64,000 bases of DNA from an uncultured delta proteobacterium. Lineage in GTDB: Bacteria > Myxococcota_A > Polyangia > Polyangiales > Polyangiaceae. Under the pieces are notes generated by a model. The model was given only the letters and a program-made list of their open reading frames with translations. It searched no databases and had not been told where the DNA came from. The DNA lies in NCBI GenBank assembly GCA_963841435.1, contig CAWJCS010000003.1, forward strand, positions 480,001 to 544,000, in the 5' to 3' direction. How positions within the stretch are numbered: the stretch's first letter is position 1; the number at the start of each line of letters is the position of its first letter. The translations under genes and the position numbers were made by a program. Positions 2,646 to 32,564 of the stretch are shown here, one piece after another.

Positions 2646-2660
2646 TTCCGAAAAGCGGAA
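2646..2660. promoter_or_regulatory. Palindromic operator candidate TTCCG-N5-CGGAA, copy 1
   Basis: TTCCG AAAAG CGGAA, intergenic; the motif recurs six times in the region. Confidence 0.65.
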
Positions 2661-2728
2661 TCGCTGCGTGGCGCTGCCGTCATGAATTCCGATCGAGAGC
2701 GTGACGTCTCGATCCCGGCAAGCGGGTG

Positions 2729-2743
2729 CTCCGATTTTCGGAA
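2729..2743. promoter_or_regulatory. Palindromic operator candidate, copy 2
   Basis: CTCCG ATTTT CGGAA. Confidence 0.6.
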
Positions 2744-2909
2744 AGGAGCAGAACCCGGGCGCGATGAAACCGCACGTGCACCGCAGCCGAGACGACACCG
2801 CTCGGACGCGACACAAGATGCCGAATCGTCACACCGGACGGGCGATCGAGGCTGTAAAAAGCGGCTGGCGTCCGCGTCATCTCTTCCGCCCTAGCGGCGC
2901 CCTCGGTCG

Positions 2910-4043
2910 ATGCAGGCCTCATTGCACGCCTCCCAGAACGACCCCACGCGGGGGTGCGACGCATCACGCCCGGGGCCCTTCGACATCGACATCCATGCCA
3001 AGCGGGTACCGATGCAAGGTTCGTCGCCCCATTCATCAGAGGATGCCCTTCTCGATGGCAACGAAGCGCCTGGCGGTTCGTCGATCGAGCGATTCGCCTC
3101 GGGGGGGTCGGGGCCGGGTCGCTCGGTGGGTCAACTCACAACGGAGTCGACCGCGATGCGCCAGCTTTTCGTCGAGCTCGAGCGCCTAGCAGCGACCACG
3201 ACCACCGTCACTTTGGTCGGAGAAACAGGCACGGGCAAGGAGGCGCTGGCTCGCGCGACCCACGCAGTTGGCCCACGAGCGGGGGAGGCGTTCGTCAAGT
3301 TCGACTGCTCGGGCATTTCGCCCTGCGTCGTCGCGCGGGAGCTTTTCGGAGAGGAACCGCCAGCGTCGATGGACGCCCCGACGAGGGAGCCCGGTGCCCT
3401 CGAGCGAGCTGCGGCAGGAACGCTCTATTTGGAGTGCATCGCCGAGCTGTCGCTCGAAGTGCAGGGTCTACTCGCGGCCGAGTTCCAGCGGCGGGCGGCC
3501 CGCCACGCGGCCGGAAGCATCGTGCCGTCTTTTCACGCTCGCGTCATCGCTTCAACGCATCGCGACCTGAAGTCACTCGTATCGCTAAATCTGTTTCGAG
3601 AGGACCTGTACGTTCACCTGTTGGGCGCTGTCGTCAACGTGCCGCCCCTTCGCGCCCGGCTCGACGACCTCCCCCTAGTCGTTCCACAACTGCTCGCGTT
3701 GCTCGGCCGGAGCGACCTCACGCTGGAGCCGCACGCGTACGAAGCGCTGCGCGCCGAGGGCTGGCGTGGCAACTTTCGCCAGCTCGAAAAAACTCTCACA
3801 ATTGCGCTCTATCGCTCCGAAGGAGGCGCACTCGACGCCGAAGCGCTGCGCGCCGCAATGAGCGAGGCACAGGACGCCGAGCTCGACACGCTACCGCTGG
3901 GCGGCCAGCCTCTTGCTCGAATCGAGCGCGCCGCCATCCGGCAGACGCTGGCGCAGAGTGGTGGCATGAAGAGTCGTGCGGCGCAGACGCTCGGCATTGC
4001 ACTCTCGACGCTCTACGACAAGCTCAAGAAGTACGATCTTTGA
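2910..4043 (+). CDS. Sigma54-interacting AAA+/Fis-HTH family regulator, degenerate (no GAFTGA, altered Walker B); start may be 3012
   Basis: Walker A GETGTGKE; RVIASTHRDL; FREDLY; WRGNFRQL; C-terminal HTH AAQTLGIALSTLYDKLKKY. Confidence 0.85.
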   Translation: MQASLHASQNDPTRGCDASRPGPFDIDIHAKRVPMQGSSPHSSEDALLDGNEAPGGSSIERFASGGSGPGRSVGQLTTESTAMRQLFVELERLAATTTTVTLVGETGTGKEALARATHAVGPRAGEAFVKFDCSGISPCVVARELFGEEPPASMDAPTREPGALERAAAGTLYLECIAELSLEVQGLLAAEFQRRAARHAAGSIVPSFHARVIASTHRDLKSLVSLNLFREDLYVHLLGAVVNVPPLRARLDDLPLVVPQLLALLGRSDLTLEPHAYEALRAEGWRGNFRQLEKTLTIALYRSEGGALDAEALRAAMSEAQDAELDTLPLGGQPLARIERAAIRQTLAQSGGMKSRAAQTLGIALSTLYDKLKKYDL

Positions 4044-4103
4044 GCGGTGCAAACAGCGTTTTTCGAGAGCTTTTCCGGGCGAGACGCGACGAGTCGTCCA
4101 GCG

Positions 4104-5328
4104 ATGCAGGCCGTTCCCATCAAGCGCTGCCTACCGTCCGTCTCGATCCTGTGGGGCATCGCGTTCGGGCTCCTGACGTTGCTGTGCGCCCCACATGCGC
4201 ACGCGTACACGTGGATGATCCGGCACGGCTACGCGACCTGCACGCCGTGCCACCTGGACCCGTCGGGCGGCAGCGTCCTCACGCAATACGGCCGTACCGT
4301 GGGAGGCCTGCTTCTCACGACCGACTACGTCAACCGGAACGCCGAGGAGAGCGAACCCTCCGCCATCCACGACTTCGCGTTCGGCGTGATCCCTCTGCCC
4401 GAACAGCTGATGCTCGGCGGTGATACTCGACTGCTCTACTATTCGAACAAGCTCCAGGGCGTGACGCCGAGGAACGAATTTTTGCTGATGCAGGCCGACA
4501 TGACGGCCGGCGTGTCCTGGAACAACGTTCTGGCCGGCGCGAGCCTCGGATACGCGGCTCAGGGGGCCTTTGCCGCGTCGCTCACGCGCGGCGACGATCA
4601 CAATCTGGTTTCGAGACACCACTGGATCGGCTACCAAATCAGCGAATCTCAGGGGCTCGTGTTGCGCGCGGGGCGCATGAACCTGCCCTTCGGGATCCGC
4701 GACGTGGCGCACACGCTTTTCGTCCGCGAGAACACGGCAACGCGCATCGACAGCGACCAGCAGCATGGCGTCGCCGCGAGCTGGTCTCCCGGATGGTGTC
4801 ACGCGGAGCTCATGGCCATTGTCGGCAACTTCCAGCTACGGCCCGACGAGTACCGGGAACGCGGGTACAGCGGCGTCTTCGAGTGGTTTCCGACGAGCCG
4901 GCTCGGCATCGGCGCGAGCTCCCTCGTCACTCATCGCGGCCTCGACGATCTCTTCCTCAAGGAGGCGTGGCGCCAGGCCCATGGCATTTTCGCCCGCTGG
5001 GCCACGGGGTGGGAGCCGCTCGTGGTGATGGGAGAAGCGGACTACGTGCTCCGCTCCGCCAAGCAAGAGTTCCGCCGCCGGGGATTCGCGGGGTATCTCC
5101 AAGCAGATCTCGAGCCGCTGCAGGGTCTTCACGTCGTCTTGACCGGCGAAGCGGAGAACGTCGGCGTGCGCGGTACCCCGCTCTCCTTCGGCGCTTGGCT
5201 CTCGGAGATCTCGGTTCCTCGCCCCACACGCCGACGTCCGAGTTGACAATGTCTACCAGCGCTTCGCGGATGAATTCGGCACCCTGGACTCCTTGACGCT
5301 GCTTCTCCAGGCCCACCTCTATCTCTAG
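4104..5328 (+). CDS. Exported monoheme (CxxCH)-beta-barrel/porin fusion protein; +1 frameshift near 5212
   Basis: Signal peptide ending AHA; CTPCH; alternating beta-strand pattern. Removing c5212 gives ..EIWFLAPHADVRVD..LLLQAHLYL-stop (TAG 5326-5328), an outer-membrane-protein-like C-terminus. Confidence 0.7.
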
Positions 5329-5336
5329 AACCAACC

Positions 5337-6032
5337 ATGCGCCGTCCAACCGAGCAAACGTCGCCCTCTGGCGCTCCGGGCGAAGCGCTGCCCTGGGCCG
5401 TGCAAACAGGCCGCGGCTCGTGCCGTCGAGCCACCGGCGCATGCGCCGCTGTCGTCGCGCTCGGCGCTTGGCTCGTGGCGGGCCCCGCCGTGGCGTCCCC
5501 GACCTTCCCGGCCGTCGTCGAAGGGTATTGGCACGTGAGCAGCCTGCCCGTACCGGGCCAAGGCTGTCGTCTGTGTCATTCGACCGATGCCGGGGTCACC
5601 GTCACGCAGCCCTTCGGCAAGACGGTCCGCGCCCTCGGCGCGCGCGACAAGGACAATGCTTCGCTGCGATCCGCACTCGATAGGGTGCGCGTGAACGGCT
5701 ACGACAGCGACGGCGACGGCATCGCCGACTATCAGGAGCTTGCGATCGACGAGACGAACCCCAGCGATCCACACTCTTTCGTCGCGCCACCCGTCATGAT
5801 CGGTGAAGGCGGGGCTGGAGGCGCAGGCGAAGGAGGCTTCGGGGGCGAGGCTCCCCGGCCCCCCGCGCCACCAACCCCACCCCCATTGCCGCCGCTGCTC
5901 GAGCATGGTTGCTCGTTCGGAGCCGCGGGCAAAATGGACACCGGCGTCGAGCTTGTTCTCGCCTTTTTGTTCTTACCTGCGCTCCTCCGCGCGCGCCGCG
6001 AAGCACGGCGCGACCCACGCCCTCGAGGGTGA
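5337..6032 (+). CDS. Exported CxxCH protein with a DSDGDG Ca-binding-type motif and a MYXO-CTERM-like tail
   Basis: Hydrophobic signal ..PAVA; CRLCH; DSDGDGIADYQE; Gly/Pro linker; GCS..hydrophobic stretch..RARR. Start codon uncertain. Confidence 0.65.
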   Translation: MRRPTEQTSPSGAPGEALPWAVQTGRGSCRRATGACAAVVALGAWLVAGPAVASPTFPAVVEGYWHVSSLPVPGQGCRLCHSTDAGVTVTQPFGKTVRALGARDKDNASLRSALDRVRVNGYDSDGDGIADYQELAIDETNPSDPHSFVAPPVMIGEGGAGGAGEGGFGGEAPRPPAPPTPPPLPPLLEHGCSFGAAGKMDTGVELVLAFLFLPALLRARREARRDPRPRG

Positions 6033-6057
6033 CGGCCGGGGCGTTTTTCGCCGCGAC

Positions 6058-7194
6058 CTAGAATGCGCCGCGAAGCGCGGCTCCCCAGGTGCCGCGCTCC
6101 CCGACAATGGGCTCGGCGCTGAAATGGAGCGAGCGGCTTGCGCTCCTCGCCTTTTCGCCTCCGTGTCCGGAGAGGAAAAGGTAGCTTGCGCTCGCGAGCG
6201 CCGCGACCCCGACGCTCGCACCGACGAAGGCCCAGGTCCGAGCCGTGCGCGCTTCATCCACGAGCCGCGCGTGCTCTATGATTTCGTACTGGGTGCACCC
6301 CACCCCGCTCGGGCAAAGGTCCTGCGCGTCTCCGTTGGAGGTGCGATACCTGACACCGAACCAGACGCCGGCGGCGACCCCAACGACGCCGGCCGTGCCG
6401 AGCGTGTAAGCCGCAATGCGGCGACCGGGTCCGGACGAACGCGCGTCCTCTCGTTTCCGCTGCGCTGGCGGAGCCATCCGCGCTGGTGCGGCGCTCGGTG
6501 TCTGATGTGCGTCCTCGAGCGAGGGAATCGCGAGGGCATACGTCGTGCCGGGATCCTTCACCTCGAACGTCTTGGACCAGCTGCGCTTTTCTTCGGCGGA
6601 GACCGCGACGACGTAGTGACCCGGGTTGACCGGCAGGGACTTTCCCCAGTCGGCAGGCGCGATCGGCTCGTCGTTCATCTTCACCTCGGGACTCTGCGCG
6701 CGGGTCTTTTCGTCGACGTCGACGCGGACACGCGAGAGAGTGGGAGCAACGGCCAGCATGCGTTCCCTGGCGACCGCGGCGCGGTCGAGCTGTCCTGCCT
6801 TGAACGAGCGCAGTGCTACCTTCTCGAAAAGCTCGTAGGCGCTCGCCGTGCGACCGAGGGCCTGCCAGCAGCTCGCGAGGTGGAACGAGGTCCCGAGCGC
6901 GTCGTAAAGCGTAAGGCTCGCCTCGAGCTTCTGACAACCGAGCTCGTAGCTACCGCTCTCGACGAGAGCGACCCCCGCATTGAAGAGGGTCTCCGCCCGA
7001 GCCTTGTCTTCGGCCGGAGCCGCGGTACTGGCCGCGCCATCACGAACCCGTTCCGCGCTCGCCGGCGCGCTGCTCTCGGCGCGACCTGGCCGCGCGCAAA
7101 ACAGGGTCGCCCCGACCGCAACGACACTCGCAAGTCGCACGACGCTTCCCTGGGTGCCGGCTCGGCGCCCGTACCACTTTCGGATCGTCATCAA
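6058..7194 (-). CDS. TPR + PEGA-like exported protein, paralogue of 1486..2601
   Basis: AETLFNAG..GCQKLEAS..GTSFHLASCWQ; LPVNPGHYVV; C-terminal GAF. Confidence 0.7.
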   Translation of the reverse strand: MMTIRKWYGRRAGTQGSVVRLASVVAVGATLFCARPGRAESSAPASAERVRDGAASTAAPAEDKARAETLFNAGVALVESGSYELGCQKLEASLTLYDALGTSFHLASCWQALGRTASAYELFEKVALRSFKAGQLDRAAVARERMLAVAPTLSRVRVDVDEKTRAQSPEVKMNDEPIAPADWGKSLPVNPGHYVVAVSAEEKRSWSKTFEVKDPGTTYALAIPSLEDAHQTPSAAPARMAPPAQRKREDARSSGPGRRIAAYTLGTAGVVGVAAGVWFGVRYRTSNGDAQDLCPSGVGCTQYEIIEHARLVDEARTARTWAFVGASVGVAALASASYLFLSGHGGEKARSASRSLHFSAEPIVGERGTWGAALRGAF

Positions 7195-8803
7195 TCCATT
7201 CCGGAGAAAAGAGCGTTGGCGTCCAGCGTTGCGGACGGCCTTTCAGTGGCGGGCCGGGGAGCCAGATCGAGGTCAGGCGCCGGGTTTGCCGATTTGGTCT
7301 GCAGACGCGGCGACGGCGCGCGCGCGACGGGTGCCGGGGCGGGCGGCAGCTCCGCAACAGCGGGGTGAGGCGCGCGCGGGCGAGCAACGGGAGCGCCCCG
7401 AGGAGCCGACGCCGGCGCAGGTGCGGTCACGGACGCGGTCGGCGTGGCCGCGGCGGCGAGAGCGGTCGACACGGGCGCGGGGGCAACCGCCGGCTCACCA
7501 ACGCGCGCCGCGGGCGGCATGGCGGGGATCATGCTGCGCATGAGCAACATCGTGATCGCGGCCGCACCGATCCCGATGCTCGCGCCGGCGAACAGCAGCG
7601 TGAGACCCTGCGTGCCGGAGCTCGCCGATCGCGCGTTGTCGTCGGGAGGCGGCGGCCGCGAGCGCACGAGCGCCGTGCTGCGCCTGTGAGAGGCCGGCGG
7701 CGGCATGCTGCCCGGAAGTGGCGGTGGCCGCGTCGTCCTGGCGATGATCCGCTCCATGCGGCTCACGGATGCGCGTGCTTCCGAGGATGCGAAGGGCGAC
7801 AGCGCTACCGCGAGGTCCACGACGCTGCGCGGTCGGGCCTCGGGGTCCTTCTCCAGGCAGGCGAGCACGAGCTCTTCCAGTTCGGGTGGGAACGTCCTGC
7901 CGGAAGAGGTGCAAGGGGCTCGCCATGTCCGCCGCAATCATGGCCAGGAGCGCCATCGGCGTCTCTGCACGGAACGGAGGCGTGCCCGTGATGAGCTCGT
8001 AGAGGATGGCGCCGAGTGCCCAGAACGTCCACGCGCGCGTCGAGCCCCGCTGGGTTGCGGATTTGCTCCGGCGCCATGTACGCTAGCGACGCCTGTGCCC
8101 CCGTGCCGAGCGGCATGCTCAGCCCATCGGTACCGAGCCAGTCCGGAACGAACGGATCGGACACTCCAAAGTCGAGCACTCGCACGAGCGGAGCACCGTC
8201 GGGACGACGCTCGACGAAGATGTTCGACGTGCTCAGCGTTCGATGCAAGACGCCCGCTGCATGGGCTTCCGCAAGGGTCTCGCAGACCGCGAGCGCCACG
8301 TCGGTCGCCTCGGAGACCGGCAGCGGACCCCGCACGCGCAGGATCTCGCTGAGCTCGGGACCATTCGGTAGCTCCGCCGCGCGGTACGGTGCCCCCGAGT
8401 CGAGATGGCCGAAATCGACGATGCGCTCAGCGTGGTCGCTGCGCATCTCGCGAGCCTTTCGCGCGCCGCGCTGAAAGCGGGCGACGGCCTCCGGAGACGC
8501 TGCGGCCTCGGCCGTGAGATGGCGGAGCTGCACCTTGAGGCCGAGCTCGGAGTGTCGTGCCTGGAGGACAACCTCGTGCGCAGTTCGCGCGATCTCGCGT
8601 TCGACCAGGTAGCGGCCGACGATCATGCTGCCGACATCGGACGGTCGTGTCGTGCTCCGCGGCACGCGTTGGGACGGGCGTACGCGCTGCGCGTTTTCCC
8701 GCGGCGGGTCCGTCAAGAGCTCGTGGTCGAAAACCTTCTCCCCCTCGTCCTCGTAGTCACGAGCGCCCGCGGGGTGCAGCGGGTCGTGTTGGTCGGGCGA
8801 CAT
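7191..8803 (-). CDS. Ser/Thr kinase-like (pseudokinase) membrane protein; two +1 frameshifts (~8024, ~7891)
   Basis: Three overlapping ORFs join into one kinase fold: GRYLVERE, LDFGVS, YMAPEQ / DVWALGAILYELITG / PPELEELVLACLEKDPEARP, then a TM segment and Pro-rich tail. Confidence 0.75.
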
Positions 8804-8946
8804 GCGGTACACCATCACTCCGCGGCCAACCTACACCACCGATCGGCGCCCGCCAGCGACAAATCGGCGTCAGAAACGCCGCGGGAAGGGTCGCTGTTTG
8901 GCCTCGACCGGCACTCCAAGTTCACAATGGACGGCAAGCCGTCACT

Positions 8947-8961
8947 TTCCGGAATACGGAA
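8947..8961. promoter_or_regulatory. Palindromic operator candidate, copy 3
   Basis: TTCCG GAATA CGGAA between the divergent pseudokinase and TonB-dependent receptor genes. Confidence 0.65.
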
Positions 8962-9117
8962 ATAGGGACGAGTGATCACGCGTGGTCCCGAGTCTGGAGT
9001 TGCGGGCAGTCCACCAGCCCGTAGTCGGCTAATGGCTCGTCCCGACACAGCGGTAGAGAGTTTTCCCTCGATTCACCGCACCGTCACGGAGAGCGTGCAA
9101 GGGTGCGGGCCCCTCGG

Positions 9118-14029: not shown

Positions 14030-14044
14030 TTCCGAAAATCGGAA
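14030..14044. promoter_or_regulatory. Palindromic operator candidate, copy 4
   Basis: TTCCG AAAAT CGGAA; a degenerate neighbour ATCCC AAAAA CGGAT lies at 14016-14030. Confidence 0.65.
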
Positions 14045-22071: not shown

Positions 22072-22081
22072 CGCCCGAGCA

Positions 22082-22115
22082 TTCCGAATTTCGGAGAGCA
22101 TTCCGGAATTCGGAA
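22082..22115. promoter_or_regulatory. Tandem palindromic operator candidates, copies 5 and 6
   Basis: TTCCG AATTT CGGAG (22082-22096) and TTCCG GAATT CGGAA (22101-22115). Confidence 0.65.
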
Positions 22116-22362
22116 GAGTGATACTCATTCGCTCGACGCGCGCATCGGGTTCCAACGCGAGCGTCTGCGTGATCGCGAATCGAGCCGCAAATGACCTTGA
22201 TTTCGCGGTGACCATTGTGAACACACACGGGCGCAAACGCCCCGACATTGTCACCCCCTGAAACGTACCCGTGTTGTAGCGTCCGGCCGCCGCTCGGAGT
22301 TCACCTTGCAACGTGACTCGGCGTAGTGGCCTCTGACAACGGGTTAACGAAAGGGAGCTCAT

Positions 22363-23953: not shown

Positions 23954-24101
23954 GCCAACGTTCAAAACGGCGCTCCGTGCACTCGCCAGGCACAGCGCGT
24001 GTTCGCCCTGCGGCACGCGCGAGGGCGGAGCCGCACCAAGACAACGACACAATCGGTCTTCCCAGCCAATAGATAACCCGCTGTTATCTAAGGAGTTTTT
24101 C

Positions 24102-26495
24102 GTGAAATACCTCAATCCCCTTCGGACGGGCGCGCTGCTCGGATTCGGATTGCTCGTCGGAGCAACCGAGGCGGCCGCGGACCCCTCCGTCCAGCTCACC
24201 ACCGCTCAGAATCAAACCTCCAGCCTCGGCGACCTCATCGGCTCCGACACGCTCGAGGACATCGCGCGAGACGTCATCGCGAACGCCCCGGCCATCTCGG
24301 CAGACAACGCCGCACAGGGTGGCATCGGCATCATCGGCTACCTCGGCCTCGGTTCTTCCGCCGGCCAGCGGCAGCTGATTGGCGCGCCCAGCACGGGCGA
24401 GCCGACCTGCACCACCACCGCGGGCACCGTCAACGGCGATACCAACTGGGGCTGCGAAGAAGTGGCGCCCATGTCTCGCCAGTTCAACAGCGCCATCTGC
24501 AGCCACGACGCCGACGACCCGCGCGACGCGGACGACTCGACGACGGTGAACAGCACCGCGGAAGGCATCTCCGTCGGCCTGGACGGCCTATCGGTGATCG
24601 CGGACAACGCGGGCCACCGTCAGTACGCCACGGGCACGTGCGTTACGCCCGACACCTCGACCCCCGAGAGCACGGTTTTTGGCCCGAGCAGCGACAACAG
24701 CGCCGGGATCCCGGGTGCCAACGGCTACGGCGGCACCGGCACGCTGCGCAACTCGGGCAATATCGGCGCCTACCAACTCGGCGGCGGCGCCCTCGCTGGT
24801 GACGGTTGGAAGGACGTTCTGCGGCTCATCTACACGGGCTGCAGGAACGACCAGGGCACCTGCGCGGCCACGATCACGCGCTTCGATCGGTGCAGCCCGA
24901 CCGTGAACACGGTGCGCCGTGACCTGGTCAACAGCTACGCCAACATCTTCGAAGGTACGGACTGCCCCGAAGCCAACCATTGCACGCAGCTTCGCGCGGC
25001 CTACCGCCGTGACGACGCGTCGGGCACGACGGGCTTCATCCTCGACACGCTCGGCCTTCGCAGCGGCGGCAGCGACCTCGCCGCGCGAACCCGCGTCTCC
25101 AATCCCGGCGGCGCCGGTACGAACGGGTTCCAGACCGTGCCGGAGAACATCTTCTGCGACGGCGGGCAATACGAGGGCCTGTGGCCCGTGCCTTACACGA
25201 CGGGCACGGTTCCGGTCCTCACTGCTGTCGCCGCCGGAGAAACGTACATCGGCGATCCGCTCCAGCGCGCCTGCGCACCGGAGGACGACCTCTGCGGTCC
25301 CACCGGTACCATCGGCCTCGTCCGACCGATCCGCAGCCCGCGAGACTTTGCCTACCCGGCGGTCCAGTGCACCCGCAACGCCTTCGATCGCAAGCCCTGG
25401 CCGAACACGGGTACGGTTCCGACCTGCCCCGACGGCACGGCTCCGACGCTGCGCGGCTGCTATGCCCCGTACTACAACGCGGGCGGCGGCAGCCAGAACT
25501 TCGACTGCATGAACCCGGCCAACAGCCGCAACTCGCAGAGCCCGACCGCGCTCGACGGTCGCGTGTTCAACTTCATCTGGAGGCTTCCGAACGGCGACTT
25601 GTCGAACATCAACCACCAGCAGGCAAACAGCGTGAATCTGCCTGAGATTGCCCAGTGGCGCCAGAACATGGCGACGGTCAATCCCGGCGCAACGGCGGTG
25701 GCCGGCGGTGCGTTCGGCTCGACCACGCCGCTCAGCACGCAGTCGTACCTCCCGTCGGGCTCGCTCAGCGCGAGCTTCAACAAGACCTACGCTGGCGGCG
25801 TCGTTTGCCAGCAGGGTTCTGCGACGGACGTGATCGGTTGCGCGGTGGCCAACACGCGCTGTGTCATCGGCTACAGCGGTCGCGAGACGGGCACGAACCA
25901 GCCGCAGGACGATGGCAACGAGTTCATCCGGCTCGGTGGCTTCGTCCCGTCGAACGAAGACGTCATCGCCGGCAACTACCCGATCACTCGCTCGCTGTTC
26001 GTCAACGCGATTGGCGGCTTCGAGAGCGTCTTCGAGGATTGCCTCGCGCGTCAGTCCAACCCGAGCGACCCGACTTGGGAGTATTGTCAGGACGAGCTCG
26101 AGTTCGCCAGGCGCTTCTACATCATGAACTCGGCCACGCAGGCCTCGGTCTCCAAGTTCGGGTTCATCCCGATCGCGGCAAACTCGGCGGCACTCTGCGC
26201 CGGCTCCACGAACATCGCTCAGTGCGTGGCCAACATGGACAAGCGCTGGGCGGCCCGCTGCGTCGGTGCCACGAGCGGCCAGCCCGGTACGTCGGTGGCC
26301 GGCTGCGGTCGCCTCAACACCACCACTGAGACGCTCAGCAGTGGTATCCAGCTACCGCACCAGGACATCGAGCGTTGCGATCCGGACCACGTTACGTGGG
26401 GTACTCCGGAGGGACCCGCCGCGGGTCTGAGCTGCGAGGCTTCGGTGAGCACCTCGTCCGGTCCTGCGATCGGCGCGAACAACACCTGCGGCTGA
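24102..26495 (+). CDS. Large exported Cys-rich PstS/PBP2-like substrate-binding protein
   Basis: RBS AAGGAG; signal peptide ..EAAA; PstS-like motifs in order GSDTL, MSR, VGLDGLSV, RRDDASGTT, IGYSG, YPITRSLFV. Confidence 0.7.
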   Translation: MKYLNPLRTGALLGFGLLVGATEAAADPSVQLTTAQNQTSSLGDLIGSDTLEDIARDVIANAPAISADNAAQGGIGIIGYLGLGSSAGQRQLIGAPSTGEPTCTTTAGTVNGDTNWGCEEVAPMSRQFNSAICSHDADDPRDADDSTTVNSTAEGISVGLDGLSVIADNAGHRQYATGTCVTPDTSTPESTVFGPSSDNSAGIPGANGYGGTGTLRNSGNIGAYQLGGGALAGDGWKDVLRLIYTGCRNDQGTCAATITRFDRCSPTVNTVRRDLVNSYANIFEGTDCPEANHCTQLRAAYRRDDASGTTGFILDTLGLRSGGSDLAARTRVSNPGGAGTNGFQTVPENIFCDGGQYEGLWPVPYTTGTVPVLTAVAAGETYIGDPLQRACAPEDDLCGPTGTIGLVRPIRSPRDFAYPAVQCTRNAFDRKPWPNTGTVPTCPDGTAPTLRGCYAPYYNAGGGSQNFDCMNPANSRNSQSPTALDGRVFNFIWRLPNGDLSNINHQQANSVNLPEIAQWRQNMATVNPGATAVAGGAFGSTTPLSTQSYLPSGSLSASFNKTYAGGVVCQQGSATDVIGCAVANTRCVIGYSGRETGTNQPQDDGNEFIRLGGFVPSNEDVIAGNYPITRSLFVNAIGGFESVFEDCLARQSNPSDPTWEYCQDELEFARRFYIMNSATQASVSKFGFIPIAANSAALCAGSTNIAQCVANMDKRWAARCVGATSGQPGTSVAGCGRLNTTTETLSSGIQLPHQDIERCDPDHVTWGTPEGPAAGLSCEASVSTSSGPAIGANNTCG

Positions 26496-26566
26496 GCGCA
26501 GGAGCGCCGTCGTGTCGGGCCCGGACTCGGTTCGGGCTTAGCCTCGGCACCTCGGCCTAACGTCGA

Positions 26567-26606
26567 ACCAAGGCCGGAGTGGCAACGCTCCGGCCTTGGT
26601 CTTTTT
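26567..26606 (+). terminator. Rho-independent terminator after the PstS-like gene
   Basis: accaaggccggag-tggcaacg-ctccggccttggt followed by cttttt. Confidence 0.85.
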
Positions 26607-26667
26607 GTGGCACGCGAGTTCGAGTTCTCGTTGCCGGAGGGAGAGAGAGAGAGCACCGTCTGGAGCG

Positions 26668-28746
26668 ATGAAGCGCCCCGACTCCCGCGCCAGCGTCGAG
26701 GTCGCGTTCGGGCACTACCAGGCGGGCAGCCGCGACAAGGCGAGGGTCGAATGCGAACGCGTGCTCAAGCGCGATCCGCGCGAGGCACGTGCGCTGTTCT
26801 TGCTCGGAACCATCGACCTGGACGACGGGCGCGCCGAGCGCGCCGTCGAGCGTCTCAAGAAGGCGGTCGGGCTCGCCCCGAGCGCGGGGCCGTTCTGGTC
26901 GAACCTCGGCCTCGCCCATGCGAAGTCGCGCGATTTCGAGCGCGCCGAGAAGGCCCTGACGCGGGCGCTCGAGCTTGCTCCCAACTTGGTCGAGGCGACC
27001 TTCAATCTCGGCCTCGTGCACCTGGACCGCGGAGATCCCGGTGCGGCGCTGCCGTACCTCGGACGCGCCGCCGAGCAGCGCCCGGGCGTGCTCGTCGTGC
27101 AACGTGCCTACGCCCGTGCGCTCGTGCGTGCAGGCCAGGTCGATGAGGGCCTCGCACGGTTTCGCTCGACGCTGGGGCTCGCCGGAGGCTCCACGGAAAC
27201 GCACCTCGAGTTCTTCTCCCTGCTCGAGCTGCATGGTCGCCACGCCGAGGCCGAAGCAATCGCGAGCTCGCTGGTGGCGGAGCACCCCACCCTCGCCGAG
27301 GCCCACGTTCGCCTCGGCCAGGCGCTCGCGCAAAAAGACGAGAACGACGCGGCACTCGCTTGCTTCCAGCGCGCCGTGGAGCTCGATCCGACTCACGCCG
27401 CGGCGCGGCGTGGGAGCGCGCTCACGCTGCTCGAGCTCGGTTGCCTGGAAGAAGCCATCCCCGAGCTCGAACGCGCCGTCGAGCTCGACCCCGCGGTCGA
27501 ACGCCCACATAGCAATCTCGTTTTCTACGCCGCGTTCAGTCCGGCCCACGATGCGGCGCGTATCCTCGAAGCCGCCCGCCGCTTCGACGAACGCCATACC
27601 CGGCCCCTCGCGGCCCGACGGCAGCCTCATGAAAATGATCCCTCTCCCGACAGGCGCCTGAGAATCGGCTACGTGTCGCCCGAGCTCCGCGACCACTCGC
27701 AGCGGCTGTTCACGCTGCCCGTCCTGCGCGAGCACGACCACGAACGCTTCGAGATCGTCTGCTACTCGAGCACGCGCCCCGAAGACGCGTGGACCGACCG
27801 TCTGCGTGACTTCGCCGACGCGTGGCACGACGTGGCAAACATGAGCAACGAGAAGCTCGCCGCGCAGATCCGCGACCAGCGCATCGACGTGCTGGTGGAC
27901 CTCACCATGCACATGAGCGGGCAACGTTTGAAGCTCTTCGCCGAAAAGCCCGCACCGGTGCAGATGGCGTGGCTCGCATACCCCGGCACGACCGGCGTCG
28001 GTGGAATCGACTATCGCCTGACCGATCCGCACCTGGATCCTCCGGCCGGTCCTCTGCCGTATTCGGAGCAGTCGCTGTGGCTACCTTCGACTTTTTGGTG
28101 CTACGACCCCGCGAGCACCGAACCGGCCGCCAATGAGCTGCCGGCGCTGTCGAACGGGTACGTGACGTTCGGCTGCCTGAACAATTTCTTGAAGGTGAAT
28201 CGCGGTGTGCTCGAGCTGTGGGCACGGGTGCTCCAGGCCCTGCCGACTTCCCGACTACTCTTGCTCGCACCCTCCGAACGCGCCCGGGCCTTTGCGCTCC
28301 GTGTCCTCGAGTCCAATGGGGTCGATCCCGGGCGCGTGGAGCTAACGGGCCTGGCGTGGCGAAAGGACTACCTTCGGACCTACCACCGCATCGATGTCGC
28401 GCTGGATTGTGTTCCGTACAACGGCCACACGACGAGTCTCGACGCCTTTTGGATGGGCGTGCCCGTGGTGTCGCTCGTCGGACAAACCGTCGTGGGCCGC
28501 GCTGGTCTTTGCCAGGCGCAAAACCTCGCGCTCCCCGAGCTCGCGGTCGACACCGCGCAAGAGTTCGTCGCGCGAAGTGTCGAGCTCGCCGCCGATCTGC
28601 CGCGCCTCGCCACGCTGCGCCGGCGCCTCCGGTCACGGCTCGAAACGTCGCCGCTCATGGATGCGCGGAGCTTCACGCGTGCGCTGGAGGCCGCGTATCG
28701 CGAGGCTTGGGAGCGCTGGTGCTCCCGCGTCACTCCAGGCGCTTGA
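26668..28746 (+). CDS. TPR-containing O-GlcNAc transferase/SPINDLY-like glycosyltransferase (GT41)
   Basis: N-terminal TPRs; [68 protein letters not shown]. Confidence 0.9.
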
Positions 28747-29335: not shown

Positions 29336-29443
29336 GAGAAGAACTCCGTTCGCCCGCCCGCGCGAAGCCGTGTTCGTGCGTTTGACCGCAGCCTCGTGAC
29401 GAACGTGCACGCGTCCCGAGGCGTTTCGAGCAATTCGGACCAC

Positions 29444-30463: not shown

Positions 30464-30472
30464 GCGGAATCT

Positions 30473-30490
30473 GTGACATGATGGTTACAG
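30473..30490 (-). promoter_or_regulatory. Pho-box-like 11-bp-spaced direct repeat
   Basis: Minus strand CTGTAAC-CATC-ATGTCAC, close to the E. coli PhoB consensus CTGTCAT-N4-CTGT(C/A)A(C/T); upstream of phoX. Confidence 0.55.
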
Positions 30491-30605
30491 GCAGTTGCTC
30501 GTCATGGCGACCTCGCGGTGAGTCTATAGGCGGCATGCACGGGCAGAATGCGTGGCACGCTCGAAGTTGGGCCGCCTCGATACAAGCTGGCCGGCGGCGT
30601 TGGTG

Positions 30606-32564
30606 ATGACGTTCGGCGACGACGACGAGACCTCGAACCCCTCCGGTAGTCCGTCGCTCGAACAGATCTCGACCGGGCTCGTAACGCGTCGCTTCGCGCT
30701 GTCGGTCGGCATCGGAGTGGTGTCGCTACCGTTCTTGAGTTGCCGGAGCCGCTCGTCGCCTCGGCCAGCTCTCGCAGAGCGGCGGGTGGTCCGAGCGAAA
30801 ACGTTGCTTGGCTTCGAACAGCTGCCCACGTTGACGCGCGACGAGGTCGTCGTGCCCAAGGGCTACCGCGTGAGCGTGCTCTACGCGTGGGGCGACCCGG
30901 TCTCGGACGGTCCGGCTTTCGCGCAGGACGCGTCGAACGCCTCCGAAGATCAAGCGCAGCAGGCCGGAATGCACCACGACGGCTTGCATTTCTTTCCGCT
31001 GGGCACGCTCGCGAGCTCCGAGCGCGGCATCCTGGTGGTCAACCACGAGTACACGGACGACGGCCTGCTCCACACGACGGGCATGGATCCCTGGACGCCA
31101 GAGAAGGTCGCAAAGTCGCAGGCGTCCCACGGTGTCAGCGTGATCGAGATCGCGCGCAAGGACGGGCGTTTCGAGGTCGAGAGGCCGTCGCGCTTCGCGC
31201 GCCGCATCACCGCGCGCACACCCATTCGCGTGGGTGGTCCGCTCGCCGGACACGCGCGGCTTCGTACCCAGGCCGACCGGGAAGGCAGCTTGGTCCTCGG
31301 CACCATCGCCAACTGCGCGTGCGGGAACACGCCGTGGGGGACGTACCTTACTTGTGAAGAGAACTGGCACGGCTACTTCGTCAACCCGAAGGGTGAAGCC
31401 AAGGACCTGAAGGGCGCGGAGAAAGCACGCGTCCTGCGTGACCAGGCGCGCTACGGCATCGGACGCGATGGCGCGGGCTACCGCTGGCACGAGCACGATC
31501 AGCGCTTCGACGCGTCGCTGCACCCGAACGAGCCCTATCGCTTCGGCTGGGTCGTCGAGATCGATCCGTTCGATCGGGAGGCAGCGCCGGTGAAACGCAC
31601 GGCACTCGGTCGCTTCAAACACGAGGGCGCTTGCACCGTGGAAACTCGTGCCCGGCACGTGGCGGTCTACATGGCTGACGACGAGCGCTTCGAGTACATT
31701 TACAAATTCGTGAGCAAGGAGCCGTGGCCAGCGGCACGTGACGCGAAAAGAAACCCGCTCGACCAAGGAACGCTGTTCGTCGCCCGCTTCGACGCAGACA
31801 AGACGGGGGAGTGGCTCGCGCTAGTTTTCGGTACCCGTGGCCTCGACCCGGAGCATGGATTTTCCGACCAAAACAACGTCCTCCTGGAGACGAGACGCGC
31901 GGCCGACGTTCTCGGCGCGACGAAGATGGACCGCCCCGAGTGGATCGCGGCACGCAAGCGCGGTGAGCTCTTCGTCAATCTCACGAACAACACGAAGCGC
32001 GGTAACGAGGGCCGACCGGGAGCAGACGCGGCGAACCCGCGCGCGCCGAATCCCTTCGGGCACATCGTGCGCATCGCGGAGCGCTCGGGGGACTGGGACG
32101 ACACGCGCTTCGATTGGGAGATTTTCGTTGACTGCGGAGACCCCGCGAGCCCCGATCCGGCGAAGCGCGGCTCCGCTCGCGTGGCGTTCGCTTCGCCTGA
32201 CGGGCTATATTGCGACGCCGCAGGCCGGGTATGGATCGAAACCGACGTCTCGACGGCGTCGCTCAACCGCGGCGAGTATGCGCCCTTCGGCAACAACCAG
32301 TTGCTCGCGGCGGACCCCACGACCCGCGAGATCCGGCGCTTTCTCACCGGACCGACCGGCTGCGAGGTCACGGGGATCACGATGACGCCGGATGGCAGGG
32401 CGATGTTCGTCAACATCCAGCATCCCGGAGAAACGGCGAACGACCGCAGCGATCCCGCGCGGCCGAAGGCGGTGAGCTCGTGGCCTGATGGCAAAAAGGG
32501 GGGCAGACCGCGCTCGGCGACGATCGTCATCCAGAAGGATGACGGCGGCGTCATCGGTACGTAA
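30606..32564 (+). CDS. phoX: PhoX-family alkaline phosphatase (Tat-exported)
   Basis: Twin-arginine TRRFAL; GMHHDG, VNHEY, TPWGTYLTCEEN, FGWVVEIDP, RTALGRFKHE, MDRPEW, SPDGL, GCEVTG, FVNIQHPG. Confidence 0.95.
   Translation: MTFGDDDETSNPSGSPSLEQISTGLVTRRFALSVGIGVVSLPFLSCRSRSSPRPALAERRVVRAKTLLGFEQLPTLTRDEVVVPKGYRVSVLYAWGDPVSDGPAFAQDASNASEDQAQQAGMHHDGLHFFPLGTLASSERGILVVNHEYTDDGLLHTTGMDPWTPEKVAKSQASHGVSVIEIARKDGRFEVERPSRFARRITARTPIRVGGPLAGHARLRTQADREGSLVLGTIANCACGNTPWGTYLTCEENWHGYFVNPKGEAKDLKGAEKARVLRDQARYGIGRDGAGYRWHEHDQRFDASLHPNEPYRFGWVVEIDPFDREAAPVKRTALGRFKHEGACTVETRARHVAVYMADDERFEYIYKFVSKEPWPAARDAKRNPLDQGTLFVARFDADKTGEWLALVFGTRGLDPEHGFSDQNNVLLETRRAADVLGATKMDRPEWIAARKRGELFVNLTNNTKRGNEGRPGADAANPRAPNPFGHIVRIAERSGDWDDTRFDWEIFVDCGDPASPDPAKRGSARVAFASPDGLYCDAAGRVWIETDVSTASLNRGEYAPFGNNQLLAADPTTREIRRFLTGPTGCEVTGITMTPDGRAMFVNIQHPGETANDRSDPARPKAVSSWPDGKKGGRPRSATIVIQKDDGGVIGT

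Follow-up and report, generated by a model that had tools for sequence, protein, structure and literature searches.

Part of the region 2646-32564 of the window (the whole stretch of 64,000 nucleotides analysed here) is a conserved, co-regulated envelope gene set of uncultured soil myxobacteria, whereas phoX and a number of further genes in the region are mere neighbours. The core of the set comprises a four-haem lipoprotein, the single-haem protein cyt399, an orphan PstS-like protein, Cys-rich lipoproteins with DUF4215 and PKD domains, a TPR anchor protein and a regulator of the NtrC family. The regulon is probably undescribed and would join a haem relay to an oxyanion binder. Literature searches gave no paper on such a cluster, in agreement with the earlier note, whose author knew no described system with this combination. 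We incline to the view that the regulon is Polyangia-specific, and smaller and differently bounded than the 30-kb finding of that note. The genes of the core are as follows:

2910..4043, plus strand: NtrC-family regulator of the sigma-54 activator type, no receiver domain (Sigma54_activat 1.6e-35, HTH_8 1.2e-12)
4104..5328, plus strand: cyt399, single-haem CxxCH protein, putative outer-membrane barrel; one frameshift near 5207-5215 (ORF as called 4047-5246)
14193..18062, plus strand: cyt1290, four-haem lipoprotein of 1289 aa with PSCyt1-like, SO2930-type dihaem and class I cytochrome c domains
18081..20915, plus strand: cys944, Cys-rich (85 Cys) DUF4215-repeat lipoprotein (DUF4215 1.1e-34, myxo_disulf_rpt 9.7e-53)
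21007..22071, plus strand: tpr354, TPR protein with C-terminal membrane anchor (TPR_2 1.5e-8, transmembrane 309-329)
22363..23863, plus strand: cys436, Cys-rich lipoprotein with PKD-like domain, DUF4215 repeats and shared C-terminal domain; one frameshift near 22545
24102..26495, plus strand: disulfide-rich PstS-like protein of 797 aa, predicted to bind an oxyanion, no transporter genes beside it

Signal peptides, lipoboxes, Tat motifs or membrane anchors were found in 13 of the 16 genes of 2646-32564, bearing out the earlier description of nearly every gene as exported or surface-located, and the genes named there (receptor, lipoproteins, PstS-like protein, GT41, parvulin and PhoX) were all present. 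Frameshifts occur in three genes (cyt399, cys436 and a Ser/Thr kinase); these had been overlooked at the first reading, as had the sigma-54-activator-like regulator (2910-4043) and the kinase itself (7191-8818, minus strand).

Synteny was analysed in 74 related loci fetched around homologues of the four-haem lipoprotein, all of them from Polyangia (Myxococcota) metagenome genomes. By family clustering, the commonest neighbour of the four-haem gene was the PstS-like protein (46/74 loci), followed by the tpr354 family of TPR anchor proteins (38/74), Cys-rich lipoproteins of the cys436 type (31/74), cyt399 (19/74) and the sigma-54-type regulator (18/74). When only the 32 loci with 9 kb or more on each side of the four-haem gene were considered, the respective counts were 26 for PstS-like, 22 for TPR, 18 for any Cys-rich protein, 14 for cyt399 and 15 for the regulator. 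The window's own clade has cys944 after the four-haem gene (L002, L003, L004, L006, L057 and L062), and neither regulator nor cyt399 was seen within the fetched flanks of its nearest members (L002, L003, L006 and L062). In the main clade an outer-membrane barrel and small haem lipoproteins lie beside cyt399, with an OprO/P-type porin in 4 loci. Scattered homologues had been named beforehand as the finding that would speak against the proposed system. The core around the four-haem gene recurs, but PhoX was found in 0 of the 74 loci, parvulin in one (by tblastn), a TonB receptor homologue in two (L047 and L069) and GT41 in three.

A second line of evidence is the palindrome TTCCG-N5-CGGAA, present in 4 exact copies in the window against 0.16 expected, a number that 0 of 100 shuffles reached. 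All exact and one-mismatch copies are intergenic and fall in four regions, as the earlier note had it (positions without strand):

2646..2660: copy 1, exact, 264 nt upstream of the regulator gene
2729..2743: one mismatch (CTCCG...CGGAA), 181 nt upstream of the regulator gene
8947..8961: copy 2, exact, 156 nt upstream of the TonB receptor gene
14030..14044: copy 3, exact, ~160 nt upstream of the four-haem gene
22082..22115: tandem palindromes upstream of cys436, 22082-22096 with one mismatch and 22101-22115 exact

These palindromes head four units, namely regulator-cyt399-cyt231, receptor-PF28492 lipoprotein, four-haem-cys944-TPR and cys436-PstS-like. A tandem pair also precedes the cys436 homologue in L006, and the CTCCG variant is the commoner form in related loci. 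Generalised to yTCCG-N5(AT-rich)-CGGAr, the 15-bp pattern stands 100-280 nt upstream of core genes in the window and 35 related loci. The intergenic sequence of the related loci (177.6 kb) held 24 matches and their coding sequence (1052 kb) held 14, an intergenic density ten times that of coding DNA. A weight-matrix scan gave 67 intergenic against 18 coding matches, the matrix being derived from sites that the scan re-finds, so that independence is confined to matches that deviate from the exact pattern. The genes nearest these sites were PstS-like (29), cys436 (18), regulator (10), four-haem (5), TPR (3), receptor (2) and cyt399 (1). The common candidate operator supports co-regulation of the core, in the window and the 35 related loci. 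Of the single co-regulated surface apparatus proposed earlier, the palindrome-marked core stands, but the whole 30 kb does not; no palindrome precedes GT41, parvulin, the 339-aa lipoprotein or phoX. Secreted Cys-rich proteins and sigma-54 activators are both numerous in myxobacterial genomes, and half of the 30 kb is not conserved, as would be expected if there were no system at all, merely a chance run of exported genes with a functionless short repeat in an export-rich genome. That reading is hardly credible and is already disfavoured by the synteny and the palindrome counts: dozens of loci repeat the neighbourhood, with proteins 33-55% identical, and the palindrome, whose density in intergenic DNA is ten times that in coding DNA, keeps its position before the same gene families.

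Judged from position only, the palindrome may be bound by the local regulator through its Fis-type HTH. Exact palindromes occur in 19 related loci, and in 11 of these the regulator gene is missing from the fetched stretch. In relatives, the regulator would drive sigma-54 promoters: sigma-54-like elements were found before 11/43 cys436-type genes against a background of 8%, with a tight CGGCTTGG..GTTGCT element ~96 nt upstream in L009, L010, L014, L034 and L059. Before PstS-like genes they were near background (7/52). Aligned with nine homologues, in which ELFGHERGAFTGA and FLDEIGEL stand, the window regulator shows ELFGEEPPASMDA and YLECIAEL instead. It has thus lost its GAFTGA loop together with the DE of Walker B, and no alternative reading frame restores the motif. 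The best -24/-12 element of the cluster is weak:

22295..22310, plus strand: sigma-54-like -24/-12 element CGGAGTTCACCTTGCA, 53 nt before the ATG at 22363, matching GG and TTGCA only

Since GAFTGA and Walker B as well as good -24/-12 elements are missing in the window, the regulator of this genome would have to act without sigma-54.

The right-hand end of the region carries the following features:

26567..26600, plus strand: intrinsic terminator, 15-bp stem then T run, ending the cys436/PstS-like transcription unit before GT41
26668..28746, plus strand: TPR + GT41 glycosyltransferase (GT41 2.3e-51), cytoplasmic, no operator, judged a neighbour
30473..30490, minus strand: Pho-box-like site before phoX, the only match with <=2 mismatches in 64 kb, separate from the palindrome regulon
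30552..32564, plus strand: PhoX alkaline phosphatase with Tat signal (PhoX 3.1e-161), judged a neighbour and not a member

GT41, the parvulin (minus strand, Rotamase 1e-17), the 339-aa lipoprotein and PhoX are bystanders; GT41 adjoins long PstS-like genes in L033, L051 and L060. The Pho-box-like repeats reported earlier before the receptor and phoX were recovered at phoX, but not at the receptor, where there was no match with <=3 mismatches; the scan gave 3 matches overall against 9.7 expected. It is very unlikely that all of 2646-32564 forms one phosphorus-scavenging apparatus, with PhoX, the PstS-like protein, receptor, GT41, parvulin and cytochromes under Pho control. PhoX does lie within 4 kb of the PstS-like gene with a Pho-box-like site before it, 13/16 genes are exported, and in related loci PPK1 (L018 and L070) and an OprO/P-type porin (4 loci) lie by the cluster. 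Against this stand the rarity of PhoX, parvulin, receptor and GT41 in the 74 loci and the missing palindromes before GT41, parvulin, the 339-aa lipoprotein and phoX. Further, a Pho box was found neither before the receptor nor elsewhere in the cluster, between phoX and the core lie a terminator and genes on the opposite strand, and the core promoters of relatives look sigma-54/EBP-type, not Pho-type.

The PstS-like protein of the smaller, palindrome-marked regulon matched no Pfam model at E<5 on its own. A profile of 21 family sequences matched solved phosphate-binding proteins (4omb, E=1.4e-11; also 4pqj, 4n13 and 1twy), which supports the earlier assignment, and 9/21 members touched PBP_like_2. 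The motifs GSDT, GGGS, PMSR and RRxDxSGTT are invariant in the 21 sequences, so the anion-binding motifs are kept; RRxDxSGTT aligns weakly (E=0.37) to the FRSDESGTTDNF loop of PstS3 (4lvq). PstC, PstA, PstB, PhoU and PhoB/R were absent among 234 neighbour-family representatives scanned. We think it fairly likely that phosphate, or another tetrahedral oxyanion like it, is the ligand of the protein. The phosphate reading draws mainly on this protein, which is both the commonest neighbour and the commonest operator target; the OprO/P-type porins (4 loci) and PPK1 (2 loci) add little. That haem relay and binder serve one process, redox-assisted release and capture of mineral-bound phosphate, is a tentative and rather doubtful proposal.

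The four-haem lipoprotein, earlier counted as having 3-4 haems, carries four motifs, CX4CH at residue 145 and CxxCH at 488, 575 and 968. Every site is invariant across 19 homologues; at the first, 8/19 have plain CxxCH and 7/19 have CX4CH. The family has >640 homologues; 19/19 members matched TIGR03806 (best 1.2e-31, below the family cut-off) and Cytochrome_CBB3, and 7/19 matched PSCyt1. Haem attachment in both cyt1290 and cyt399 is predicted from the CxxCH-type motifs, and a redox role would follow the same sequence evidence. We slightly favour an electron relay, in which the haem proteins would carry electrons between the outer membrane or the outside and the periplasm.

Another possibility involves no electron transfer: the large haem protein would be a peroxidase/MauG-kind enzyme that matures or cross-links disulfide-rich secreted proteins (PstS-like, DUF4215), assisted by a TPR chaperone and by a signal peptidase dedicated to the task, in the biogenesis of a surface matrix or adhesin. 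Its constant partners are indeed Cys-rich exported proteins with 28-85 Cys each, their PKD and DUF4215 repeats resemble those of adhesins, genes of the DsbD-like and DsbA-like kinds turn up in single loci, and an S26 signal peptidase lies just after the four-haem gene in 28/74 loci. The peptidase is, however, absent from the window and from the window's own clade. No peroxidase or MauG model was matched (1/19 members touched CytoC_perox at E=0.023), and the fused cytochrome-porin and small haem lipoproteins would be left unexplained, so that we hold this possibility improbable. Regarding the Cys-rich partners, cys944 and cys436 do share a C-terminal domain as noted earlier (BLASTP E=4e-36), and the best PDB matches of the cys436 profile are PKD domains (E ~1e-3).

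The family of cyt399 comprises 2426 clusters at E<=0.001. The CxxCH of the protein stands directly after the signal peptide and is invariant in 16 sequences. Of the CxxCH-barrel fusion described earlier, the CxxCH stands and the barrel is putative, read only from the C-terminal ...LLLQAHLYL signature, found in another frame, and from amphipathic-beta statistics (beta/alpha moment ratio 1.25, where barrels give 1.10-1.16 and soluble proteins 0.77-0.98). PMC8406198 and PMC13741234 describe Cyc2/Cyt572 as proteins of ~400 aa with a signal peptide, one CxxCH lying ~12 residues from the mature N-terminus, and an outer-membrane signature at the C-terminus. Cyc2 is defined by the motif PXFAR[Q/K][T/Y], placed five residues ahead of CXXCH, and has PXL four residues beyond CXXCH. 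The layout of cyt399 is the same, with a lone early CxxCH and ~400 aa, and the A-Y-P-W-M-I-R with which its mature form begins is reminiscent of A-x-P-x-F-A-R in Cyc2; in addition, OprO/P is the model for the Cyc2 porin and OprO/P-type porins adjoin cyt399 homologues in 4 loci. The core might accordingly be read as an Fe(II)-oxidation or iron module, the cytochrome-porin taking electrons from Fe2+ as Cyc2 does and passing them to periplasmic haem proteins, while the PstS-like and Cys-rich proteins handle the Fe/phosphate minerals so formed or serve as sensors. We consider this unlikely: unlike Cyc2, cyt399 has neither PXFAR[Q/K][T/Y] nor PXL at these positions, no FeOB-type partners and no oxidase genes (except COX1 in one locus) lie nearby, profile-profile comparison of cyt399 with its OprO/P-like neighbour was not significant (probability 1%), and the PstS-like gene as main operator target is left unexplained.

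The remaining genes of the left-hand part are these:

5337..6032, plus strand: cyt231, small single-haem protein with TSP3 repeat (TSP3_bac 1.1e-5), CxxCH at residue 77 and hydrophobic/basic C-terminal tail
6058..7194, minus strand: exported TPR-like protein, accessory, with signal peptide; C-terminus shared with a paralogue at 1486-2601; downstream of the kinase
7191..8818, minus strand: Ser/Thr protein kinase with membrane segment, accessory (Pkinase 1.7e-11), split over three reading frames
9103..12255, plus strand: TonB-dependent receptor with CarboxypepD_reg, Plug and barrel (TonB-Xanth-Caul 223 bits, below the cut-off of 310)
12456..14009, plus strand: lipo558, Gly/Ser-linker lipoprotein of the PF28492 family, receptor partner, lipobox FVAC

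The MYXO-CTERM-like tail attributed to cyt231 was visible by eye, but no NCBIfam model matched it at E<=0.01; cyt231 homologues adjoin cyt399 homologues in L012, L021 and L029. The domains of the receptor upheld its earlier identification. Its partner lipo558 had no PDB or Pfam match with its own sequence and carries PF28492 as a precomputed annotation; it has 131 homologues, all 120 listed carry PF28492.1, and they adjoin the four-haem gene in L047, L060, L063 and L069. Because a palindrome heads the receptor unit, and L047 and L069 are the only loci in which a receptor lies close to the four-haem gene, the pair is a lineage-specific recruit to the regulon; the homologue in L069 has a palindrome site upstream too. 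The kinase ORF changes frame twice between ~7880 and 8010. The exported TPR-like family occurs in 6/32 fully flanked loci and adjoins a kinase in L043 and L045.

Sixteen genes were called between 2646 and 32564 from third-position G+C, Pfam and NCBIfam, the G+C content of the window being about 68%.

Genes of the examined region (coordinates, strand, product)
2910-4043, +, NtrC-family regulator (Sigma54_activat 1.6e-35, HTH_8)
4104-5328, +, cyt399, single-haem CxxCH protein
5337-6032, +, cyt231, small CxxCH/TSP3 protein with hydrophobic-basic tail
6058-7194, -, TPR-like exported protein
7191-8818, -, Ser/Thr kinase
9103-12255, +, TonB-dependent receptor
12456-14009, +, lipo558 lipoprotein
14193-18062, +, four-haem lipoprotein, 1289 aa
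18081-20915, +, cys944, DUF4215 lipoprotein, 944 aa with 85 Cys
21007-22071, +, TPR protein with C-terminal anchor
22363-23863, +, cys436, second Cys-rich lipoprotein
24102-26495, +, PstS-like protein, 797 aa
26668-28746, +, TPR+GT41 protein
28730-29335, -, parvulin, membrane-anchored
29444-30463, -, 339-aa lipoprotein
30552-32564, +, PhoX, Tat-dependent

An export signal or anchor was present in 13 of the 16, only the regulator, the kinase domain and GT41 being cytoplasmic, which bore out the earlier claim that nearly every gene here encodes an exported or surface protein. The gap-pgk-tpiA genes and unrelated housekeeping and regulatory genes follow downstream, and no signal peptidase is encoded in the window. 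It is highly probable that the 16 genes include a conserved, co-regulated module, an envelope regulon of Polyangia. Its products most likely make up a haem relay at the outer membrane, co-expressed with a binding protein of the phosphate type and surface lipoproteins rich in disulfides. No paper describing this cluster was found in the open-access literature.

Some of the genes were interrupted by changes of frame. In the cyt399 gene the frame changes near 5207-5215 and the true C-terminus, ...LLLQAHLYL, lies in another frame; the kinase gene changes frame twice, the cys436 gene changes frame near 22545, and a frame change was also found in an NtrC-like response regulator gene (58943-60365) outside the examined region. 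At least five frame changes were thus counted across four otherwise conserved genes in 64 kb (cyt399, 4047-5328; kinase, 7191-8818; 22363-23863; 58943-60365). Since so many fall within 64 kb, indel errors of the assembly are likelier than gene decay, and suggest an indel-prone, perhaps long-read, assembly. Treating the genes as pseudogenes was rejected on the same count and because housekeeping-type regulators are among those hit. At the start of the window, three to four tandem 18-nt units (220-297) lie within the first, incomplete minus-strand ORF, which has a weak DUF4388 match.

Conservation of the neighbourhood was determined in 74 loci, all from metagenome genomes, which were collected from a species-representative genome collection with a 19-sequence alignment of the four-haem protein and carried up to 10 kb per side; 90 further matches of the same search lie outside this set. 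The closest locus showed 55% identity in the four-haem protein, and the window's own genome is therefore outside the collection. Synteny was assessed by tblastn with window proteins and by all-against-all clustering of 828 called genes, and the two pictures agree. Short contigs carry many of the loci, which makes the raw fractions minimum values.

Recurrence of gene families beside the four-haem gene (74 loci counted by clustering; 32 loci with 9 kb or more on each side counted by tblastn)
PstS-like protein: 46/74; 26/32
TPR anchor protein: 38/74; 22/32
cys436-type lipoprotein: 31/74; 18/32 (any Cys-rich)
S26 signal peptidase (not in the window): 28/74
cyt399: 19/74; 14/32
Regulator: 18/74; 15/32
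339-aa lipoprotein domain: 10/32
Kinase-associated TPR-like family: 6/32
GT41: 3/32
lipo558: 2/32
TonB receptor: 1/32
Parvulin: 1/32
PhoX: 0/32

The earlier note had taken the whole of the ~30 kb as one system. Its core stood, as the haem gene, the PstS-like, TPR and Cys-rich genes, cyt399 and the regulator recur together, but its periphery did not, PhoX being found in 0/32 loci, the parvulin and the TonB receptor in 1/32 each and GT41 in 3/32. In a midpoint-rooted FastTree phylogeny of 60 full-length four-haem homologues (14 loci with truncated copies excluded), the window grouped with L001 and L002 (support 1.00), then with L003/L004/L006, and then with L005 and L062/L057. The gene order of this clade (cys436, PstS-like, haem gene, cys944, TPR) is the same as in the window, and the peptidase is missing. 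In 28 of the 74 loci, a long (~395 aa) S26 signal peptidase gene lies directly 3' of the four-haem gene (e.g. L009:13465-14649, L060:13765-14787, L047:3015-4205). As the window and its entire clade lack it, the main clade may have a processing step of its own, served by this peptidase.

A lipocalin gene (Lipocalin_2 1.7e-32) is located at 883-1476 of the window, 12 kb upstream of the four-haem gene, and in the closest relative, L002, directly upstream of it (L002:7827-8471). Compared with L002, the window thus seems to have gained the block from regulator to receptor, unless L002 has lost it. Two paralogous exported proteins encoded on the minus strand (1486-2601 and 6058-7194) have a TPR-like N-terminus and end in ...GKF or ...GAF, and the gene of the second adjoins the kinase gene. 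The kinase and TPR-like paralogue occur as a pair beside the four-haem gene in L043 and L045 too, and the paralogue family is also present in L024, L028, L042, L072 and L074.

Co-regulation is indicated by a palindrome. The earlier note had seen one recurring in four intergenic regions, and we recovered TTCCG-N5-CGGAA in four exact copies, as against 0.16 expected, and in two copies with one mismatch, all confined to those four regions and none in the other 31 kb of the window. It heads four units, namely regulator-cyt399-cyt231, receptor-lipoprotein, haem gene-cys944-TPR and cys436-PstS-like. A terminator with a 15-bp stem lies directly 3' of the PstS-like gene, and no palindrome was found upstream of GT41, parvulin, 339-aa lipoprotein or phoX in the window. 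The exact form is rare in relatives (8/74 loci). When half-sites were counted in the related loci, CTCCG-N5-CGGAG was the commonest 5-N5-5 palindrome other than those of G+C only, with 11 intergenic versus 2 coding occurrences. The general form yTCCG-N5-CGGAr had 24 intergenic matches in 177.6 kb versus 14 coding matches in 1052 kb, a ten-fold higher intergenic density, and the intergenic sites carried A+T-rich spacers. A weight matrix built from 30 intergenic sites gave 67 intergenic versus 18 coding matches in 35 related loci and the window, a figure that the 30 source sites make circular in part, the other matches being independent. The genes nearest to matrix sites were PstS-like (29), cys436-type (18), regulator (10), haem gene (5), TPR (3), TonB receptor (2) and cyt399 (1). 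The sites often occur in pairs about 20 nt apart, 100-280 nt upstream of the start codon, which is the geometry of enhancer-binding-protein (EBP) sites. The two TonB receptor sites are those of the window and L069. We think that the receptor and its PF28492 lipoprotein (lipo558) were drawn into the regulon in these two lineages.

Sigma-54-like -24/-12 elements were present downstream of operators in relatives, TGGCTCGAGCCTTGCT in L029 and TGGCGTGCATCTTGCT in L045, and a tight CGGCTTGG..GTTGCT was found about 96 nt upstream of cys436-type genes in five loci. Such elements preceded 11 of 43 cys436-type genes, compared to a background of 8%, and 7 of 52 PstS-like genes, which is near background. 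Scanning of the window with TGGCAC-N5-TTGC gave 74 matches versus 56 expected, none of them convincing near the palindromes. The best -24/-12 candidate in the window is CGGAGTTCACCTTGCA at 22295. Just upstream of the ribosome-binding site of the PstS-like gene, at 24072-24088, lies a different palindrome, GATAAC-N5-GTTATC, which could be another operator.

The palindrome-binding protein would be the NtrC-family regulator, judging by the position of the sites, which lie upstream of its own gene in ten cases. Its AAA+ sigma-54 interaction domain and Fis-type HTH were both recognised (Sigma54_activat 1.6e-35, AAA_lid_14, HTH_8), and Walker A and the HTH are intact. Where the GAFTGA loop and Walker B are expected, the window protein has ELFGEEPPASMDA (GEEPPASMDA) and YLECIAEL, while nine orthologues have ELFGHERGAFTGA / G(H)ERGAFTGA (in one, S replaces A, G(H)ERGSFTGA) and FLDE(I/V)GEL. 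The other reading frames of the gene did not restore GAFTGA, so a frameshift artefact was ruled out. This degeneration fits the dearth of good -24/-12 elements in the window. Sigma-54-independent activators of the NtrC family exist, for example TyrR and Rhodobacter NtrC. Like these, the window regulator has kept the AAA+ core and Fis-type HTH, has lost the GAFTGA loop and would bind an inverted repeat upstream of its targets; unlike them, it has no sensory domain at all, and the orthologues in relatives keep GAFTGA, with sigma-54-like promoters downstream of the same operator. In the window's lineage the regulator may thus have become a sigma-54-independent DNA-binding protein that still uses the old operator. 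The window offers a natural experiment, in which the sigma-54 contact loop is gone and the operator sites persist.

The lipoprotein described earlier as carrying three to four haems has CxxCH at residues 488, 575 and 968 and CX4CH at 145, and all four sites are invariant in 19 homologues, the first being a plain CxxCH in 8 of them. More than 640 full-length homologues were found, all unnamed, and the labelled ones came from Polyangia or 'Myxococcales' metagenome genomes. The protein is a mosaic of three haem-domain types: a PSCyt1-like first domain (7/19 members, best 0.0014), a central part matching the SO2930/HNE_0200 dihaem family TIGR03806 (19/19, best 1.2e-31) and a class I cytochrome c domain (19/19). 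About 600 further residues had no match in domain and profile searches. A profile search of the PDB with the family returned class I cytochrome c alone (E ~1e-3), and the ESM Atlas contained neither the queried haem-protein sequence nor a homologue.

The dihaem cytochromes of the SO2930/HNE_0200 family (TIGR03806) are paired with a beta-helix lipoprotein (TIGR03805). In the window and in four loci a lipoprotein gene likewise adjoins that of the four-haem protein directly. The neighbour, however, gave no TIGR03805 match at E<=0.01, and the haem protein is fourfold longer than the family and carries two additional haem domains. The window protein scored 74 bits against a curated TIGR03806 cut-off of 313.3, and all 19 members fell below it; by sequence, the four-haem protein is thus related to the family through one domain and is not a member. 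The open-access literature that we searched contained no paper on what that family does. The arrangement also resembles the MtrCAB, Pcc and MtoAB conduits, in which outer-membrane barrel genes are clustered with periplasmic and lipoprotein c-type cytochromes. However, one and four haems per protein are found here in place of deca- or multi-haem wires, and the Mtr and Pcc family models gave nothing beyond a weak touch of the MtrC domain (12/19 members, E>=0.012).

The single-haem protein cyt399 belongs to a very large unannotated family, for which at least 1903 matches were found in the 90% clusters; at 50% identity it has 2426 representatives, of which 454 lie below 1e-30. Its signature consists of a signal peptide, A/YPWMIRHGYxxCxxCHxDPSGGGLLTxYGR (slash, cleavage) and a terminal ...LxQxHxYL, and exactly one CxxCH was present in 143 of the best 150 of the 2426 representatives. 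Keffer et al. (PMC8406198) define Cyc2 by two motifs, AXPXFAR[Q/K][T/Y] at five residues upstream of CXXCH and PXL at four residues downstream, and by a 16-strand OprO/P-like porin; a signal peptide, a single CXXCH and at least 365 aa are further features (PMC8406198, PMC13741234). The layout of cyt399 is that of Cyc2 and Cyt572 (PMC8406198, PMC13741234): the length is ~380-430 aa, and behind the signal peptide the one CxxCH lies about 12 residues from the mature N-terminus. The window protein has a signal peptide ending in AHA/Y and one CxxCH, and extends over ~408 aa when read across the frameshift. Its C-terminus (...QxHxYL) is of the outer-membrane type and its body is predicted to be beta-rich (beta/alpha moment ratio 1.25 from sequence statistics), both of which speak for a putative porin, and A-Y-P-x-x-x-R echoes A-x-P-x-F-A-R. 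The two motifs themselves differ. In place of AXPXFAR[Q/K][T/Y] the consensus reads A-Y-P-W-M-I-R-H-G, followed by three residues to the Cys, so that the spacing differs and other residues stand for F, A, [QK] and [TY] (AYTWMIRHGYATC in the window). In place of PXL it reads CxxCH-x-D-P-S-G-G-G-L-L, with Pro two residues past the His and then S-G. As neither motif is present, and cyt399 carries its own CxxCHxDPSGGGLLTxYGR, we place it outside the Cyc2 family: set apart by the published motif description, it is Cyc2-like in predicted architecture and not a member. Cyc2 and Cyt572 belong to iron oxidisers, cyt399 to heterotrophic Polyangia, where its neighbours are the genes of a four-haem lipoprotein and a PstS-like protein. 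The best 150 matches of the full-library search were all close relatives and none tied the family to a named Cyc2, and ten clusters that were looked up carried no names. A profile search of the PDB gave no match for the family, and profile-profile comparison with two neighbouring barrel families was not significant (hhalign probability of 1% with the OprO/P-like neighbour).

In the main clade, cyt399 is followed by a separate outer-membrane barrel (...FSAFYIF) and by a pair of small lipoproteins, of which one has a CxxCH; four loci of that clade add an OprO/P-type porin (Porin_O_P 3e-13). In L012, L021 and L029 a cyt399 homologue directly follows the four-haem gene and has a cyt231 homologue next to it. 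No similarity was found between cyt231 and the small haem lipoprotein of the main clade. The tail of cyt231 (GCSFG...hydrophobic...RARREARR) looks like MYXO-CTERM by eye alone, with no match to that model at E<=0.01 in NCBIfam/TIGRFAM. Taking the haem proteins together, we lean slightly towards electron transfer as their role. Iron oxidation is a live alternative, and a second one is that the module serves to mature Cys-rich surface proteins. The two Cys-rich lipoproteins of the window have their last ~110 residues and repeats in common (E=4e-36), in line with the shared domain reported earlier.

The 797-aa protein had been called PstS-like from its sequence. Alone, it matched no Pfam model even at E<5, and a single-sequence PDB search with its C-lobe piece gave nothing. 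A profile of the window protein and 20 homologues from related loci, on the other hand, matched solved phosphate-binding proteins (4omb 1.4e-11, 4pqj 9.9e-8, 4n13 1.4e-5, 1twy 8.9e-5; also 4jwo). PBP_like_2 was matched by 9 of the 21 members (best 1.5e-4), and the window sequence itself matched none of the three families found. GSDT, GGGS, PMSR and RRxDxSGTT are invariant or nearly so in the 21 sequences, with G47, S48, D49, G82, G84, P123, R302, R303, T309 and T310 invariant and T50, S85, M124, S125, D305, S307 and G308 conserved in at least 90%. In phosphate-binding proteins of this kind the anion is bound by Ser/Thr motifs of the N-lobe and by an Arg...Ser-Gly-Thr loop of the C-lobe; the RRxDxSGTT loop aligns weakly (E 0.37-0.68) with FRSDESGTTDNF of PstS3 (4lvq) and with a DING protein. 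The predicted anion site looks intact, and the profile matches and conserved motifs together justify the earlier name. The family shares with PstS/DING proteins (PBP_like_2) the profile homology, GS-D-T and GGGS in the N-lobe and the R-x-D-x-S-G-T-T loop in the C-lobe. It differs in its length of 650-930 aa, its large Cys-rich insertions, the DUF4215 repeats of some members, the absence of nearby pstCAB or phoU, and, in relatives, control by an EBP-type operator in place of a Pho box.

No PstC, PstA, PstB or PhoU, nor any other pst gene, was found in the window, and PstCAB, PhoU and PhoBR were absent from 234 representatives of neighbour families of the 74 loci (84 plus 150 of 244, the 10 shortest being left out). 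Pho-box-like repeats had been noted before the receptor and phoX. With an E. coli-type consensus, which may not be that of Polyangia, the phoX site was recovered (30473-30490, two mismatches) and none with up to three mismatches was found at the receptor; on the same consensus the window had 3 matches versus 9.7 expected, hence no enrichment, and none with up to three mismatches upstream of any palindrome-marked unit. Lacking transporter and Pho partners and under non-Pho control, the PstS-like protein is therefore an orphan binder, which may serve in scavenging, sensing or scaffolding. Points in favour of a phosphate role are the PstS-like protein itself, as both the most constant partner and the operator's main target, the OprO/P-type porins of 4 loci, the PPK1 of 2 loci that are closely related, and the adjacency of PhoX in the window; against such a role, PhoX is never conserved, PstCAB, PhoU and PhoBR are missing and control is not of the Pho type.

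We regard redox-assisted phosphate capture as possible, though unlikely. In its fullest form, which we consider improbable, the module would be a dedicated envelope system of uncultured soil and freshwater Polyangia, in which haem redox at the outer membrane frees phosphate from iron minerals and the PstS-like protein captures it, independently of Pho and under its own EBP regulator and 15-bp operator. The redox parts would be the new family of fused single-haem cytochrome-porins and the four-haem lipoprotein, and the freed phosphate would be bound by a disulfide-hardened orphan PstS-like protein. Apart from this reading, if the core regulon is what it appears to be, three large families without annotation are defined, namely the 1289-aa four-haem lipoprotein, the non-Cyc2 fused cytochrome-porins (2426 clusters at 50% identity) and the giant PstS-like proteins, and a conserved operator ties them together. 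The role of the many cell-surface cytochromes of aerobic, predatory or saprophytic myxobacteria, a long-standing gap, would become testable, and iron redox cycling would gain a concrete candidate for a biological link to soil phosphate availability.

The receptor is indeed TonB-dependent, as claimed earlier (Plug 6e-10, OMP_b-brl_3 5.3e-18, CarboxypepD_reg 1.5e-13), and had no PDB relative at E<=1e-5; a profile search of the PDB with the lipo558 family also gave nothing. Behind the lipobox of lipo558, tandem 33-39-nt repeats (12561-12760) encode a Gly/Ser/Lys-rich linker (GGKGGS...), and Gly-rich linkers of this sort also stand behind the lipoboxes of the four-haem protein and of the lipoproteins of 944 and 339 aa. 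The TPR+GT41 (O-GlcNAc-transferase-like) gene has the long form (~790-850 aa) of the PstS-like gene as its neighbour both in the window, where a strong terminator stands between them, and in L033, L051 and L060. The C-terminal ~175 residues of the 339-aa lipoprotein, which end in FDNVLV, share homology (E=7e-28) with the C-terminus of a protein of ~710-860 aa (e.g. L018:7734-9857); in many loci of the main clade the gene of that protein lies directly 5' of the four-haem gene. In L031, a DHOR (DUF1111-type) dihaem oxidoreductase gene (7314-8678) lies beside a TonB-dependent receptor gene (8694-11075), a few kb from the four-haem gene, and represents another haem protein paired with a TonB receptor in this neighbourhood.
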